In this document: piece by piece, positions 57,168-64,000 of the stretch
Layout: each line of letters opens with the position of its first letter
Position numbering within the stretch: position 1 is the first letter of the stretch
Assembly (NCBI GenBank): GCA_026395055.1
Contig: JAPLZK010000001.1
Span: 17,527-81,526 of the forward strand
Source: Candidatus Uhrbacteria bacterium
GTDB taxonomy: Bacteria; Patescibacteriota; Patescibacteriia; UBA9934; GWF2-40-263
Length of the DNA stretch: 64,000 bases
Direction of reading: 5' to 3'
The notes under the pieces: model-generated
What the model saw: only the letters and a program-made list of their open reading frames with translations
The model's database searches: none
Told to the model about the DNA's origin: nothing
Position numbers and translations under genes: made by a program

Positions 57168-58580
57168 CTAAGATGTGTATAAGCGCTGTTTGATGAGTTC
57201 AAGGTCGTGCTGAAGCTTTTCATCAGCGGTTAAGCATTCAGAAATTTTCTCGTAGGCGTGCATGGCGGTTGTGTGATCTCGGCCACCAAGTTCGTTTCCG
57301 ATAGATGGATAACTGGATTTCATTTCTTCCCGCATGAGATACATGATGATTTGACGAGGAAATGCGAGTTTTTTCTCACGACTTTTTCCAAGCAAGTCTT
57401 CGATACGAATATCAAAGTAGATTGATACGGTATGAATGAGTTGCTTTGGTGTTACGTTCTTCTTGAGTGAAGAAGGTTGAAAGCTGGTGAGAATTGGTTT
57501 AACCGTGTCGAGTGTTGGTCGAATGTTTTTGAATTGATGGAAAGCGATCACTTTATTGAGAGCACCTTCAAGTTCTCGCACGTTCGTCTGTACGACGGAT
57601 GCAATGTGATTCAGGATGTCGTGTTCAATTTGATAAACCTTTTCGCGACATTTTGATTCAAGAATAGCCACGCGCGTTTCAAAATCTGGGGATCCAACAT
57701 CCGCCATCATTCCTTGTTCGAGACGAGAGGATAGTCGTGCCTCAAGTGATGGAATGGCTTTTGGTGGGCGATCCGATGAGAATACGAGCTGTTTGTTGTT
57801 TTGAAAGAGTTGGTTGAATGTGTGGAAGAATTCTTCTTGTGTGCTCTCTTTTCCGCCAAGAAATTGAATGTCATCAATGAGAAGTGTATCCACCATTCGA
57901 TATCTGTTCTTAAAATCATTCATTTTTCCGGTACGAAGCGCTGAAACGTAATCATTTGTGAAACGTTCACACGTAATATAAAGAATGCGAAGGTTTGGGT
58001 TCTTTCGTAAGAGCTCATTTCCAATCGCTTGAAGCAAATGGGTTTTTCCAAGCCCAACTCCTCCGTAGATATAAAGAGGATTGTAAACGCCCCCCGGTTG
58101 ATTTGAGACCGCTTGAGCGGCGGCGTGAGCAAGTTCGTTTTGTTTTCCAACAATGAAGGTTTCAAAACAATATTTTCCATTTAAAGAAAACTCTCCTGTT
58201 CGATTTTCTTGAACGTCCGATGGTTGTTCGGTAAAAAAATCTTTTGGGGATTGTACGGGTTGTTCTGGAGCATGATAAACAGGTTGTGGTTCTGGTTTTC
58301 CTGCAACAGGAACCATTTGCGCCGGGATCTGACGTGTTTCAACACGGAATGTAATGTGTTTAATGTTTCCTCCTGTGTGCTCTTGCACAGACTTAATGAT
58401 TTCTTTCGCATGTTTTTTTTCAAGCCATGTCAATGTAAACATGTTTGGAACACCAACGGTAAGAGAGTGTTCTGAAATCTCTGAAATGAACGTGCTTTTA
58501 AACCACGTCGTGAAATTTGCTTTGCTAAGGGACAACTCGAGTTCCCCAAGAACAGCTTGCCAGAGTTCGATCGTGTTCAT
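57168..58580 (-). CDS. dnaA: chromosomal replication initiator DnaA
   Basis: AAA+ Walker A GGVGLGKTHLL; C-terminal DnaA-box-binding HTH (GGRDHTTAMHA). Confidence 0.95.
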   Translation of the reverse strand: MNTIELWQAVLGELELSLSKANFTTWFKSTFISEISEHSLTVGVPNMFTLTWLEKKHAKEIIKSVQEHTGGNIKHITFRVETRQIPAQMVPVAGKPEPQPVYHAPEQPVQSPKDFFTEQPSDVQENRTGEFSLNGKYCFETFIVGKQNELAHAAAQAVSNQPGGVYNPLYIYGGVGLGKTHLLQAIGNELLRKNPNLRILYITCERFTNDYVSALRTGKMNDFKNRYRMVDTLLIDDIQFLGGKESTQEEFFHTFNQLFQNNKQLVFSSDRPPKAIPSLEARLSSRLEQGMMADVGSPDFETRVAILESKCREKVYQIEHDILNHIASVVQTNVRELEGALNKVIAFHQFKNIRPTLDTVKPILTSFQPSSLKKNVTPKQLIHTVSIYFDIRIEDLLGKSREKKLAFPRQIIMYLMREEMKSSYPSIGNELGGRDHTTAMHAYEKISECLTADEKLQHDLELIKQRLYTS

Positions 58581-59642: not shown

Positions 59643-60362
59643 CTATTTATCCCAAAGCATCTCAAACATTTCCTTGAAAATATCCACCATACTTGGAACT
59701 TCGATAACAACCGCTAAAGCGGTTTGATCTGGGCTTACGATCAGGATTTTATCATCAAAGATATCCATTGTACTTTTAAATATGTGGTTCTTTGGCAGTA
59801 CTCGAACTTCTCGAAGCAACTTCTCATCATCAGGACTCGCTTTGACCGAGTCGGCTGAAAGCAGAATTCGTGTTTTTATTTTCGCATCCGCTCGATCGAA
59901 CCGAAACTTTTGAAAAAACTCAGGATTAATTCCCTCCCAAGCCGTCGCACTTCCGATCGCGTCGTAAGATTTTCCTTTATATTCAGCGAGAATGCCTGTG
60001 TAGAAACGCTCAAGCTCTTGTTTTGTCTCGATAAAACGTAGGCCTACACTCGAAACAGTTTGTTTCTCGACAGACTTTAGCTCTGGAATGATTGCATTGA
60101 ACGATTCGAGCCGCTTTTCGAACTGTCCAGCGACTTTGTCTGGCTTTTCTGCTCGATATAAACGCTTTGACTTGTGAAAATACGTAGAAGCAAAGCCTTT
60201 TTCATGCAAAGACTTGAGGATTGGATAGATTGTTGTCCGCTTCAAACCGACTTCCTTTGACAAAGCAATGGCATTTGCACCCCCAAATTTCAATAAAGCG
60301 AGGTAAGTTCGCGCCTCGTCTTCGGTTAGTCCGAGGGTTTGAAGAGTGGTTACGTGGGACAT
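59643..60362 (-). CDS. TrmB-family transcriptional regulator
   Basis: N-terminal winged HTH (LTEDEARTYLALLKFGGANAIALSKEVGLKRTTIYPILKSLHEKGF) plus C-terminal effector-like domain. Confidence 0.6.
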   Translation of the reverse strand: MSHVTTLQTLGLTEDEARTYLALLKFGGANAIALSKEVGLKRTTIYPILKSLHEKGFASTYFHKSKRLYRAEKPDKVAGQFEKRLESFNAIIPELKSVEKQTVSSVGLRFIETKQELERFYTGILAEYKGKSYDAIGSATAWEGINPEFFQKFRFDRADAKIKTRILLSADSVKASPDDEKLLREVRVLPKNHIFKSTMDIFDDKILIVSPDQTALAVVIEVPSMVDIFKEMFEMLWDK

Positions 60363-60580: not shown

Positions 60581-60610
60581 ATTGACAAAAAGGCAAAAAT
60601 CGGGTATACT
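60581..60610 (+). promoter_or_regulatory. sigma-70-type promoter (TTGACA-17-TATACT)
   Basis: Consensus -35 TTGACA, 17-nt spacer, -10 TATACT; ~100-nt structured leader before the 60719 ATG. Confidence 0.55.
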
Positions 60611-60718
60611 GATGTTATCAAGAATGAGAGAGCGATCAAAGAGATTGCGACTCGCTTGAGGAGAGAGTTCATTCGAAACAACAAGTCCTGACGCAAAGCG
60701 ATCAGGCAAGGAGTTACT

Positions 60719-61144
60719 ATGGTTCGCATGATCACGATTCTGAACTTCGAAAACCTTGGGGATGTCACCGAGAAGCTGGCGCAGTGGTTGAATGGCTTGT
60801 CTCCAACTTCTTCGAAGCAGGCACTGTTACTGAAGGATGAAAAGAATTCCTGCACGGTTTTCATTGATGGACAGTATTTCAAGTGTCCCGAGCTTATCGG
60901 CTTCGAAAGCCGTGGTGGTTACAATGACGGCTGGGTCCAAGTTTGGATGTTCAAAAGCGAAATGGATAGTCGACAGCCCAGCATGTCAGATCTCTACTAC
61001 GAGTATGGGAATCGTGATTGGGAGGCTGTCGAGCTTGATTACCTCGATGAGCTCGATGTGGAAGGCGACGAAAACGTCCAAATGGAGCGTTGGCAGAATG
61101 AGGATCCGCAAGGATTCCATGAGTGGTTCAATCCCAACGAATAA
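60719..61144 (+). CDS. hypothetical acidic protein
   Basis: 141 aa; AAGGAG SD 7 nt upstream; Asp/Glu-rich C-terminus. Confidence 0.55.
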   Translation: MVRMITILNFENLGDVTEKLAQWLNGLSPTSSKQALLLKDEKNSCTVFIDGQYFKCPELIGFESRGGYNDGWVQVWMFKSEMDSRQPSMSDLYYEYGNRDWEAVELDYLDELDVEGDENVQMERWQNEDPQGFHEWFNPNE

Positions 61145-61148
61145 AATC

Positions 61149-61297
61149 TAACCCATCGCTCGGATTTGATCACACGACACTTCGTGATCTCCGAGTTGAT
61201 GGGTTCCCTTCTTGGATGATCAACATGGGTTGGTCGAACGAGAGTGGAGTGAATCGAAACAATAATGGCGGTTTGAGGATTGCCAAAAGGAACTACG
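61149..61297 (+). repeat. structured leader element, copy 1 (57-nt hairpin + ~90-nt conserved leader ending in SD)
   Basis: AACCCATCGCTCGGATTTGATCACACGACACTTCGTGATCTCCGAGTTGATGGGTT nested hairpin, then leader ending GATTGCCAAAAGGAACTACG-ATG. Confidence 0.6.
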
Positions 61298-61543
61298 ATG
61301 CGAAACGAAAATAAGGTCTGCGGAAACGACTGTCAAATCAGCGAACCGCACAAGGCACTTGAGGCATTTGAACGTGTGTGCGTTTGCGAAAAGCACGGTG
61401 CGTTTAAACGCGTCTATGAGCCCAATGGAATTTATCGGGGCTCATACGGTTGGAAAAAAATGTCCGACGAAAATCTTCAGATGTTTCTGGAGAGTAGTCG
61501 GCATGTTGAAGCATATTATGGGAAGTGTGTTTCTCGAGGTTGA
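61298..61543 (+). CDS. small Cys-containing hypothetical protein
   Basis: 81 aa from MRNENKVCGNDC; SD AAAAGGAA; CxxxC and CxC pairs. Confidence 0.5.
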   Translation: MRNENKVCGNDCQISEPHKALEAFERVCVCEKHGAFKRVYEPNGIYRGSYGWKKMSDENLQMFLESSRHVEAYYGKCVSRG

Positions 61544-61565
61544 TCTTGTAAGACACCTCAAGTCC

Positions 61566-61714
61566 TAACCCATCGCTCGGATTTGATCACACGACACTTC
61601 GTGATCTCCGAGCTGATGGGTTCCCCTTTTGCATGATCAACGTGTGTTGGTCAGGTGAACGTGGAACAAGTAGAAACAACAGTGGCGATCTAACGATTGC
61701 CAAAAGGAGTCAAT
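61566..61714 (+). repeat. structured leader element, copy 2
   Basis: Hairpin 56/57 identical to copy 1 (61567-61622); following ~90 nt about 65% identical; ends GATTGCCAAAAGGAGTCAAT-ATG. Confidence 0.6.
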
Positions 61715-61978
61715 ATGGCCAGCAAGCGTGGATTGCGAATTCGTGCGGCAAAAATTGCGGCGAGAGAAAAAGGGATGGTGATTGTGTTGAGGCCGAAATG
61801 GCGGGAGGACACAGAACCGTTCTGCAAGTGTGAACATCGAAACTGCCTTTGTTCCGATGGTGGTTGTGCTGTGTGCGACACCAAAATAAAGGTTGGTGAA
61901 TTCAGCTACTCGAACTACGATTCCAAAGAGGTTCGAAGGCAGAACGTGGCTGCGATGATTCCTTCTTACAATTGTTAA
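61715..61978 (+). CDS. small Cys-rich hypothetical protein
   Basis: 87 aa from MASKRGL; CKCEHRNCLCSDGGCAVCD cluster; SD AAAAGGAG. Confidence 0.5.
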   Translation: MASKRGLRIRAAKIAAREKGMVIVLRPKWREDTEPFCKCEHRNCLCSDGGCAVCDTKIKVGEFSYSNYDSKEVRRQNVAAMIPSYNC

Positions 61979-62035
61979 GGTTCTGAATTCGAAGTTTTCG
62001 TTTTGTATCACGAAGAGTTCGACGACGGAGCTGGC

Positions 62036-62260
62036 ATGAAGTATTGCGAGGCGATTCTTGTTTGCAAGACGTGTGGAAGCACGTATCTGCAGAACGAACA
62101 CACGCCCTATGCAGGATCACGAAAGTCATGTCAGGAAATTTCTTCTGAAGAAGCTGAGGGTTTTCTTCGTGGAAAACACAAAGCCGAACAAGATGAGATA
62201 CGAGAACAAGAGAAACGAAATCGTTTATTCGAAATGAGAATCAATTCAGTCTTTCAGTGA
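62036..62260 (+). CDS. small Cys-containing hypothetical protein
   Basis: 74 aa from MKYCEAILVCKTCGS with GGAG 7 nt upstream; the track ORF starts at TTG 62003. Confidence 0.4.
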   Translation: MKYCEAILVCKTCGSTYLQNEHTPYAGSRKSCQEISSEEAEGFLRGKHKAEQDEIREQEKRNRLFEMRINSVFQ

Positions 62261-62306: not shown

Positions 62307-62340
62307 GGCGCGCACAGAATCAAATCTGTGCGCGCTATTT
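62307..62340 (+). terminator. rho-independent terminator
   Basis: GCGCGCACAGA-ATCAA-ATCTGTGCGCGC followed by TATTTT. Confidence 0.6.
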
Positions 62341-62366
62341 TATAACGTCACTCGCGAGTGACGTTA
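62341..62366 (-). terminator. terminator for the DUF167 gene
   Basis: ATAACGTCACTC-GCGA-GTGACGTTAT perfect 11-bp stem. Confidence 0.5.
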
Positions 62367-62581
62367 TTTATTTCCACCTGTTTTATTCGTGTCGTCTTCC
62401 CTCTCACAATCTCGATGCGAGACTTTGCAATGTCGAGATCGTTGGACAACACTTCAATCACCGCATCATTTGCCTTCCCCTTCTCCGCAATTGCCGTTAC
62501 GGATATCTTCACGGTCTCTTCATCGATCCATTCGATCTTGTTTTGTCGCGATCGAGGTTTTACGTGGACGGTGATAATCAT
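62348..62581 (-). CDS. DUF167 (YggU/UPF0235) family protein
   Basis: 77 aa; VHVKPRS ... IAEKGKANDAVIEVLS ... IVRGKTTRIKQVEI matches the DUF167 pattern. Confidence 0.6.
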   Translation of the reverse strand: MIITVHVKPRSRQNKIEWIDEETVKISVTAIAEKGKANDAVIEVLSNDLDIAKSRIEIVRGKTTRIKQVEINNVTRE

Positions 62582-63630: not shown

Positions 63631-64000
63631 TTATGAATCACAGAGATTCGGAATGTTGTTTCTTGAGAGTGTGATGACGAGTGATTCTTCTGGTTGCACT
63701 TCATTTGATGAGAGAAGGCGAAACAAACCTTGTTCCGACGCTGCTTCACAGATGAGAGCGTTGTGTGTTGTAACAATGAACTGAACGCGCGGAAAATGTT
63801 TACACAACTGCGGTCCGAGTTTGGACACGATCGACGGGTGAAGCGCGAGCTCCGGTTCGTCGATGAGGACAACTCCAGGAACATCTACGATCGGATATCC
63901 GTTTGGAGATGTGATGGATGCTTTCGCGTCTCGCAGTAGCCACGACGTGAGTGAAGCCAAAAGGGCAACCGTGCGTTGCGTCGCTTTTGATTCCATATAA
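63631..64000 (-). CDS. AAA/ABC-type ATPase (AAA_21/OLD-like), C-terminal fragment
   Basis: Walker B LIDEPELALHP and H-loop FIVTTHN; N-terminus lies beyond the window. Confidence 0.55.
   Translation of the reverse strand, partial: YMESKATQRTVALLASLTSWLLRDAKASITSPNGYPIVDVPGVVLIDEPELALHPSIVSKLGPQLCKHFPRVQFIVTTHNALICEAASEQGLFRLLSSNEVQPEESLVITLSRNNIPNLCDS

Follow-up and report, generated by a model that had tools for sequence, protein, structure and literature searches.

A conserved structured RNA element bounding exchangeable orphan genes near the replication origin of a Candidatus Uhrbacteria genome

What is the role of a highly structured element that recurs between small open reading frames (ORFs) beside the replication origin of a bacterium of the Candidate Phyla Radiation (CPR)? 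The question is raised by a 64,000-nt stretch of the metagenome-assembled genome of a Candidatus Uhrbacteria bacterium (contig JAPLZK010000001.1, locus tags NTX72_; hereafter, the window). An earlier note, made from the letters of this stretch alone, had described a duplicated hairpin-bearing 5' leader ahead of two small cysteine-containing ORFs and had proposed folding, covariance analysis, an Rfam scan, and a wider search for copies as checks. According to our analysis, the element is very likely a real conserved structured RNA that bounds swappable ORFs. As for its role, we assign a probability of about one half to the reading in which it is an intercistronic RNA that serves mRNA processing and insulation and, in addition, supplies homology for the shuffling of gene cassettes.

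In the window, the two copies form a direct repeat of 144 nt (61148–61291 and 61565–61708) with 84% identity. Each copy, 152–156 nt in length, consists of three hairpins (P1, P2, and P3), followed by an unpaired Shine-Dalgarno sequence (SD) and the ATG of the next ORF:

61150–61205, plus strand: P1 of copy 1; 20 bp in three stacked stems (a, b, and c) with the loop ACGACAC, −29.0 kcal/mol, starting 5 nt past the stop codon of ORF A1
61205–61248, plus strand: P2 of copy 1, abutting P1; the apical stem TGATCA/TGGTC includes a U.G pair that is found in every copy
61249–61297, plus strand: linker (GAATCGAAACAA), P3 of the beta type (61266–61285), and SD AAGGA (61287–61291) of copy 1
61567–61622, plus strand: P1 of copy 2
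61622–61665, plus strand: P2 of copy 2, in which one C-G pair of copy 1 has become U-A
61666–61714, plus strand: linker, P3 (61683–61702), and SD AAGGAG (61704–61709) of copy 2

The duplication described in the earlier note is therefore well founded: the P1 hairpins differ from each other at one base and give two matches in the window, against none in 100 shuffles. Some of its figures required correction. The single difference between the P1 copies stands, with a recount of 55/56 instead of 56/57 identical positions; the next 92 nt are indeed similar, at 65/92 (71%) instead of about 65%; and both copies do end in the shared GATTGCCAAAAGGA, with 6 nt and not 5 nt before the ATG. The starts of the copies, 5 and 22 nt past the preceding stop codon, were given correctly. 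In the window copies, the P1 loop reads ACGACACUUC, and P1 and P2 follow each other without a spacer as a compact two-hairpin unit of 107 nt.

Folding gave −58.6 and −60.8 kcal/mol for copies 1 and 2, respectively (z = −5.0 and −4.8, with none of 200 shuffles as good), so the first of the proposed checks was passed by both copies. The reverse complements fold at −42.1 and −51.6 kcal/mol; the minus-strand fold is weaker because P2 and P3 hold G.U pairs, and the structure is therefore a feature of plus-strand RNA. Between the two copies, the pairing of P3 is kept through changes from G-U to A-U and from U-G to C-G, and the SD, located 3' of P3, has no partner in the minimum-free-energy folds. 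What comes after P1 (TTCCCTTCTT or UUCCCUUCUU) is no T-tract, and P1 was not listed in the terminator scan, in agreement with the earlier conclusion that it is not a simple intrinsic terminator; the array's own terminators at 62307–62367 do bear T-tracts. The promoter scan revealed no plus-strand promoter-like sites within 61149–61297 or 61566–61714. Since the element contains neither a promoter nor a U-tract, the array is taken as one operon. The short-read Logan contigs of the same strain either stop within the repeat (L001, L002, and L007) or start within it (L013 and L014), which indicates that the repeat breaks assemblies.

Related loci were collected in three ways. A scan for the inner P1 stems over 185,579 species-representative genomes returned a single contig (L003), an exact-sequence look-up of the ribosomal protein L34 of the window returned nine (L004–L012), and a metagenome scan anchored on the neighboring TrmB-family gene added L016. 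All loci have a common frame: rpmH-rnpA-yidD, the TrmB gene (minus strand), a promoter with a leader, the ORF array, one or more terminators, and yggU and nfo (minus strand). Within this frame, the arrays differ as follows, where E between slashes stands for the unit P1-P2-linker-P3-SD and lengths in amino acids are given in brackets:

Window: A1 (141) / E / A2 (81) / E / A3-A4
L003: B1 (109) / E / B2 (182) / E / B3 (184, the orthologue of A3-A4)
L004 (also L005, L008, L009, and L011): C1 (111) / E / C2 (189)
L006: D1 (224) / P1-P2 only / terminator
L016: E1 / P1... (the contig ends)

The nucleotide identity to the window is 70–82% in the flanks and 73–93% in the element. The ORFs between the elements, with the exception of A3-A4/B3, have no detectable nucleotide similarity and share only short peptide motifs. 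The ORF at position 1 of L016 (E1) is homologous to the one at position 2 of L004 (C2), with 43% identity over 54 aa and a common DTWE..C.C region; cassettes therefore change position. As a separate observation, L003 (CAYHDY010000002.1) was deposited as "uncultured Gammaproteobacteria bacterium," yet it is syntenic with the Uhrbacteria locus from rpmH to nfo at 70–83% nucleotide identity, and its label or binning is probably wrong.

Covariation was evaluated in a model-based alignment of six distinct copies of the element, taken from five arrays of one narrow clade. In these copies, 94.4% of the cells expected to pair do so, versus 33–47% when the partners are slid; six pairs are changed on both sides, versus 0–2 in the slid controls, and none of 500 shuffles reaches the observed covariation score. 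The compensatory changes sought by the covariance check are thus present and support a plus-strand RNA structure. The stem a motif UAACCCAUC...UGAUGGGUU and the loop ACGACAC are invariant in all six copies, while stem c varies from GAUCAC/GUGAUC to GAGCAC/GUGCUC. Stem b varies from CUCGGA/UCCGAG to CCGAA/UUYGG with an additional insertion of 9–10 nt, and this defines two groups of P1, both of which occur in L003. In P2, a helix of 17 pairs (four of them double-changed, 94% of cells paired), the top UGAUCA/UGGUC is invariant, with the U.G pair in 6/6 copies. P3 occurs as two unrelated sequences, GUCCUGAC...GAUCAGG and UGGCGRU...GAUUGCCA, both of which form a hairpin at the same place.

In the group-2 P1 (L003 3704–3760, L004 12113–12166, and L006 5527–5580), the 10-nt asymmetric loop GGAC(G/A)U(A/U)AAA permits a second pairing, with C-G and G-C beside tandem G.A/A.G; the change of G to A in L004 and L006 is matched by a change of C to U on the other arm. 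With six sequences at hand, this may represent a second conformation of P1 or an internal loop with a structure of its own. Several other ideas on the structure were rejected. Inspection by eye of the P2 loop and the linker revealed no kissing or pseudoknot partner for the P1 loop that is kept in all copies, and a switch pairing between the 3' strand of P1 and the 5' strand of P2 is possible in group 1 only and, on inspection, is not kept in group 2. A peptide read through P1-P2 does not fit the copies either (one frame is open in group 1, and several stops occur in group 2), nor does a three-frame stop codon trap, given that stops in all frames are inconsistent across copies.

Comparison with the promoter-proximal part of the transcript shows how the element is built. 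The features concerned in the window are:

60582–60610, plus strand: sigma-70-type consensus promoter TTGACA-17-TATACT driving the array (11/12 consensus positions)
60617–60718, plus strand: promoter-proximal leader (leader 0), with a variable hairpin, the linker GAGAGTTCATTCGAAACAA, P3 of the alpha type (60685–60707), and SD AAGGAG (60708–60713); P1-P2 is absent

The promoter noticed previously is confirmed at these coordinates; its block has the same letters in L003 and is near-identical in L004, L006, and L016. The 3' half of leader 0 is identical to that of L003, and in alignment it corresponds to the 3' part of the elements between the ORFs. This part (GAGA..GGAG..TTC, GAAACAA, P3, and SD) recurs in the promoter-proximal leader of every locus without P1-P2, so that every ORF is preceded by the same 5' untranslated region (5'UTR) module of the A-rich linker GAAACAA, P3, and SD. 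In turn, each ORF with another behind it, as well as the single ORF of L006, has the abutting P1 and P2 after it, starting 0–24 nt from its stop codon; the conserved TAA of TAACCC is itself the stop codon of the upstream ORF in 3/6 copies, and in L006, P1-P2 is intact without a downstream ORF. The element is therefore composite, with P1-P2 assigned to the end of the ORF before it and linker-P3-SD forming the standard 5'UTR that all ORFs of the array have in common, because the TAA serves the upstream ORF, L006 keeps P1-P2 alone, and leader 0 has linker-P3-SD alone. The earlier designation of the whole as a 5' leader thus applies to linker-P3-SD, which does precede ORFs, and not to P1-P2, which abuts or contains the upstream stop codon and persists in L006 with no ORF behind it. 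The 5' half of leader 0 (60617–60680 in the window; 2570–2625 in L003) has a strongly different sequence in the two loci and in both folds as a hairpin near the predicted 5' end of the transcript; this hairpin may be a 5'-terminal stabilizing stem-loop.

The ORFs enclosed by these modules in the window are the following:

60719–61144, plus strand: cassette ORF A1 (141 aa), an orphan with no Pfam, PHROG, or PADLOC match and only itself among 5.8 billion proteins
61298–61543, plus strand: cassette ORF A2 (81 aa, 5 Cys), with an SD and an ATG
61715–62260, plus strand: cassette ORF A3-A4, composed of an 87-aa and a 74-aa ORF in one frame, split by a TAA at 61976–61978; the L003 orthologue is a single 184-aa protein

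The cassette ORFs of the arrays received no assignment from Pfam, PHROG, or PADLOC. A1 and the first ORF of L003 share only the motif DWxAxxLDYLxE, and the AlphaFold2 model of A1 has a pLDDT of 37. For A2, no homologues were found among 1.84 billion representative proteins; it is unannotated in the NCBI record, is not called as a gene in any collection, and has a codon score barely above that of the other frames. A2 is therefore a putative coding ORF, weakly supported as a gene. A3-A4 compared with its L003 orthologue has a dN/dS of 0.16–0.19, and only the sense frame is coding-like; an antisense ORF (61637–62101, minus strand) was rejected as a real gene, with a pN/pS of 1.6 versus 0.19 for the sense frame. 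Since A3 and A4 are one gene, no hairpin element lies between them.

Two statements of the earlier note about these ORFs have to be abandoned. The 81-aa and 87-aa ORFs had been called paralogous, whereas BLASTP gives no alignment between them at E ≤ 100; and the supposed third small CxxC protein at 62036 continues the frame of the 87-aa ORF, the two being one 184-aa protein in the relative. Purifying selection persists in the 19 codons after the TAA (61979–62035), with one amino-acid change and several synonymous ones, and the TAA could be a recent nonsense mutation, a read-through site, or a sequencing error. Motifs of the CxxC(x)(G/S)T type are present in several other cassette ORFs, and EPFCKC is common to A3 and C2. 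The 224-aa ORF of L006 (4827–5501) has a weak N-terminal match to a receiver domain (PF00072, E = 0.0016, under the family cut-off) and DnaJ-like CxxCxGxG repeats at its C-terminus. The C2-like ORF of L016 (240–720, minus strand) has an apparent frameshift, with the N-terminal 151 aa and the C-terminal DTWECRCRTG... in different frames, and is either a pseudogene or the result of an assembly error.

Evidence for the exchange of cassettes comes from synonymous divergence (dS), which was compared gene by gene between the window genome and the L003 genome:

TrmB: 1.35
yggU: 1.0
rnpA: 1.6
nfo: 2.8
cassette A3-A4/B3: 0.30

In addition, the group-1 P1 copies are identical at 56–57/58 positions within and between these two genomes, which exceeds the structural need, because group 2 shows that the stems can change. 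From the sequences, the low dS of the cassette and the near-identity of P1 agree with cassettes and elements having passed between lineages recently, by transfer or by gene conversion. Because the leader module is directly repeated, deletion or exchange between its copies can account for the C2/E1 family standing first in one array and second in another.

The mechanism that we favor can be set out as follows. P1-P2 would punctuate the transcript by keeping 3' exonucleases away from the end of the upstream cistron, and/or its invariant loop ACGACAC and basal stem would be recognized by an endonuclease or an RNA-binding protein. Once the transcript has been processed, the 5' end of the downstream cistron would be a structured standard 5'UTR resembling that of the primary transcript, and the expression of a cassette would thereby be insulated from whichever ORF precedes it. 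The modules could also serve as portable homology, given their length of 60–150 nt and their high similarity both inside one genome and from one genome to another; homologous recombination between them would delete, reorder, or import cassettes. Both halves of this scheme have precedents: in Escherichia coli, operon expression is reshaped by hairpins that protect 3' ends and by structured 5' ends left by RNase cleavage (PMC5927463), and in T4-type phages, regulatory repeats known as promoter-early stem-loops (PeSL) are proposed to mediate the shuffling of orphan genes by homologous recombination (PMC2839356, PMC4122927).

Several points weigh against this scheme. Processing, stabilization, and insulation are all effects that we infer. 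A plain exonuclease barrier needs neither an invariant 7-nt loop nor an invariant 8-bp basal stem, so a specific partner is implied. RNase III sites of the phage T7 type require a nearly continuous RNA duplex of at least 20 bp, or roughly two turns of the helix. The 20 bp of the group-1 P1 are broken by a 1×2 loop and a 3-nt bulge. In the group-2 P1, the helices are at most 8 bp long, and its 10-nt asymmetric internal loop makes it a doubtful substrate for RNase III in the classical sense. Few independent events underlie the covariation statistics (six copies from five arrays of a single narrow clade), and the pairs of P1 are almost all Watson-Crick, so that P1 alone may act as a DNA hairpin. 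The low dS of the common cassette concerns one gene pair only.

In one alternative, P1, folded in DNA as a hairpin or cruciform, would be the place of site-specific recombination in an integron-like system with its recombinase elsewhere in the genome, and cassettes would be inserted and excised there. This would explain why ORFs are replaced exactly between elements, with the boundary between variable and conserved sequence lying a few nt at most from TAACCC in every copy, and why one ORF family occurs at different array positions. It would also suit the low dS of the common cassette, the single promoter upstream of a promoterless array, the stop codon supplied by the element in 3/6 copies (as is frequent with attC sites), and the form of P1 itself (56–63 nt with bulged bases and AAC...GTT at the ends). 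An attC site has a 7-bp R box, RYYYAAC/GTTRRRY, with AAC/GTT at its inner end, an unpaired central spacer of about 5–6 nt per arm, and then an L box (PMC5027507). P1 does not have this geometry and was rejected as a member of this class: its AAC/GTT lie at the outer end of an 8-bp stem that has no interruption (AACCCATC/GATGGGTT), no pairing occurs outside them, and the next unpaired feature beyond this stem is a 1×2 loop in group 1 and a 10×1 loop in group 2. No recombinase gene was annotated with Pfam within about 10 kb on either side (window, L001, L007, and L013); no integron integrase lies near the array, the genes within about 10 kb being dnaN, dnaA, rpmH, rnpA, yidD, TrmB, yggU, nfo, the gene of an AAA ATPase, an HATPase gene, and tig. 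For P1, DNA folding would be available to both strands, but P2 and P3 rely on G.U pairs and fold only as plus-strand RNA, the conserved unit runs about 90 nt past the hairpin to the ATG, and the direct repeats of the leader module suffice for the loss and reordering of cassettes by homologous recombination. We therefore regard a recombination site as unlikely. A broader version would make the locus a new gene-cassette platform in CPR, an origin-proximal "orphan-gene nursery" in which P1 marks boundaries for a putative recombinase or nuclease that captures, excises, and reorders promoterless ORFs, while the RNA module secures their expression; functionally analogous to an integron and unrelated to IntI and attC, it is a similarly improbable reading.

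The remaining alternatives concern RNA. P1 or P1-P2 could be an atypical or factor-dependent attenuator, with expression falling along the array and read-through set by the translation of the upstream ORF; P1 is very stable (−29 kcal/mol), a ribosome terminating 0–24 nt before it would melt its base, and a pyrimidine-rich tract follows. What makes this reading improbable is that P1 has no U-tract and was not called by the terminator scan, while the operon itself ends in canonical terminators with a hairpin and a U-tract, which means that the organism uses the standard signal. Moreover, no restart promoter follows P1, yet A3-A4 is under purifying selection and must therefore be expressed. Somewhat less credible still is the release of P1-P2 as a small stable trans-acting RNA, with the loop CACACGACAC as a base-pairing seed or as a decoy for an RNA-binding protein. 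The invariance of the loop and basal stem alongside covarying inner stems, the intact copy of L006 with no ORF behind it, and the compact 107-nt form would agree with such an RNA; against it, a search of the 64-kb window for complementary targets gave matches at chance level only (6 at ≤1 mismatch versus 3.7 expected, the two exact ones being its own antisense), the element never occurs apart from this operon, and its copies number two per operon in two genomes and one in others. Finally, the long structured 5' region and the conserved unpaired nucleotides upstream of the SD would be expected of a riboswitch or thermometer controlling the downstream ORF. Such a regulator has an expression platform that alternately sequesters the SD or a terminator and goes with a functionally coherent set of downstream genes. 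We consider this reading highly improbable: the SD is outside P3 and unpaired, no alternative pairing is conserved, the genes that follow are orphans that neither resemble each other nor share a pathway, the copy of L006 has no downstream gene, and no Rfam match was obtained even at E ≤ 10. Among the functions suggested in the earlier note, a processing or stability site and a cassette-associated element thus stay viable, whereas the riboswitch or thermosensor is disfavored by the free SD, the lack of a conserved alternative fold or an Rfam family, and the situation in L006.

An intercistronic processing and insulation module, the reading preferred here, may be compared with several known systems. 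The likeness to integron arrays is one of layout: a promoter stands at one end and is followed by promoterless, mostly orphan ORFs, each ORF is succeeded by an imperfect hairpin of about 60 nt that may include its stop codon, and content and order vary between relatives. The differences are that no IntI is located nearby, that the R-box/spacer/L-box geometry is absent, and that the Uhrbacteria unit contains about 90 nt of plus-strand RNA-type structure with G.U pairs plus an SD. Furthermore, attC sites conserve structure and not sequence, and single-stranded DNA is their recombinogenic form (PMC5027507), while the sequence of the Uhrbacteria hairpin is almost invariant within each P1 group.

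The closest analogue is the PeSL of T4-type phages (Arbiol et al. 2010, PMC2839356; Comeau et al. 2014, PMC4122927). In both cases, short conserved repeats with a stable stem-loop stand between small orphan genes in a hyperplastic region, and the genes between the repeats are inserted, deleted, or replaced among close relatives, with homologous recombination as the proposed vehicle; the gain, loss, and replacement of orphan genes is seen here in five array variants between identical borders. The PeSL, on the other hand, is a sigma-70 promoter with an effective terminator, whereas the Uhrbacteria element has neither a promoter nor a U-tract, is longer, and is composed of three hairpins and an SD with covariation at the RNA level. 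It occupies a single chromosomal locus in CPR, while PeSL are dispersed in the phage genome, and it has no sequence similarity to phage records. A third resemblance, at the level of the transcript, is to the intercistronic structures described genome-wide by Dar and Sorek in 2018 (PMC5927463) and to the intercistronic expression elements of plastids (PMC2230500), in which a stable hairpin after the stop codon and a structured 5' end before the next cistron have the same expected effect of segmental stabilization and translatable monocistronic units. Those structures are gene-specific or generic repetitive extragenic palindromes (REP), while the Uhrbacteria element is one family with an invariant loop that is reused around unrelated, exchangeable ORFs, and its cleavage is a step that we infer. 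The same class of protective or processing structures between cistrons includes the REP of malEFG, papBA, and the RNase III sites of the early genes of phage T7.

How widely is the element distributed? Covariance-model and nhmmer searches of 194 kb (the window and its relatives) and 279 kb, respectively, revealed both modules at this locus only, and within this sequence the wider search suggested previously thus yields no copies beyond the locus; in the same 279 kb, the matches of the leader 0 module were likewise confined to it. The group-1 P1 core has one site, in the genome that bears L003, and is found in no other of the 185,579 species representatives. TrmB relatives at ≤66% identity have ordinary neighbors and no element, and the covariance model found no copies in 67 kb around these more distant TrmB genes; the system is therefore confined to a narrow clade. 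Its restriction to one locus in these searches also separates it from dispersed palindromic repeats (REP, bacterial interspersed mosaic element, miniature inverted-repeat transposable element, or Correia-like), which have many copies scattered over intergenic regions of unrelated operons.

Searches of databases were equally negative. At gathering thresholds, Rfam 15, with its riboswitches, leaders, and self-cleaving ribozymes, gave just four tRNA matches in the window, and at E ≤ 10, the sole overlap with the element was a chance match to a microRNA model at 19.5 bits (gathering score 93.5); the Rfam check thus assigned no family to the element. The whole array had no blastn match in 50,697 phage records and 72,556 plasmid records. 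Three pattern scans of viral contigs gave 0, 0, and, with a relaxed pattern, 36 matches, about chance level; the best of the 36 (L052) scored 25 bits with the covariance model and was rejected as an unrelated array of CCCATCAC repeats. A P1 pattern scan of a metagenome collection gave 0 matches, a weak negative because the collection misses some JGI contigs (L004 comes from a JGI sample yet went unmatched). The RNA motif is new in that it matches nothing in Rfam or among the phage records, plasmid records, and viral contigs searched, while its logic resembles known kinds, namely, intercistronic stabilizing or processing structures and PeSL-type repeats that shuffle orphan genes.

The borders of the array are formed by the following features:

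59643–60362, minus strand: TrmB-family helix-turn-helix regulator (Pfam PF01978, E = 5.7e-16), the conserved left border, divergent from the array
62307–62367, no strand assigned: two hairpin-plus-T-tract terminators (62307–62336 and 62342–62367; terminator scan) that close the array and the convergent yggU
62348–62581, minus strand: yggU (DUF167; Pfam PF02594, E = 5.5e-23), the conserved right border, next to the array in all relatives

The TrmB protein is 89–91% identical to that of the window in four relatives and adjoins the array in every locus, and the layout of paired terminators is kept in L003 and L004. The array is thus one operon of 1–3 orphan ORFs ("cassettes") that extends from the consensus promoter beside the TrmB-type gene to a canonical terminator before yggU. 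Upstream of it lie dnaN, dnaA (57168–58580), rpmH, rnpA, and yidD, and the cumulative GC-skew minimum is near 56 kb, which bears out the proximity to the origin pointed out in the earlier note. Farther downstream, an ATPase of the AAA_15/AAA_21/SMC_N type (357 aa) and an HATPase_c_3 protein (665 aa) are encoded between nfo and the trigger-factor gene (window 63631–64000, minus strand, cut by the window end; L013 2000–6563). In L004 and L006, nfo is directly beside tig without these genes in between; the insertion in the strain of the window looks like a strain-specific island and is possibly a defense system.

The CPR, or Patescibacteria, have small genomes, and very little is known about their non-coding RNA and their acquisition of new genes. 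At the locus described here, a compact conserved RNA architecture is reused around exchangeable orphan genes beside the replication origin, and the data point to cassette exchange between lineages. The general importance is limited because the known distribution covers about one genus-level clade. The element also provides a new searchable RNA motif whose invariant loop implies a specific partner. If the model holds, the element would represent a natural standardized module for expression and insulation and a chromosomal counterpart of the PeSL shuffling of phages, and the locus would offer a defined place for watching the turnover of orphan genes in uncultivated episymbionts.

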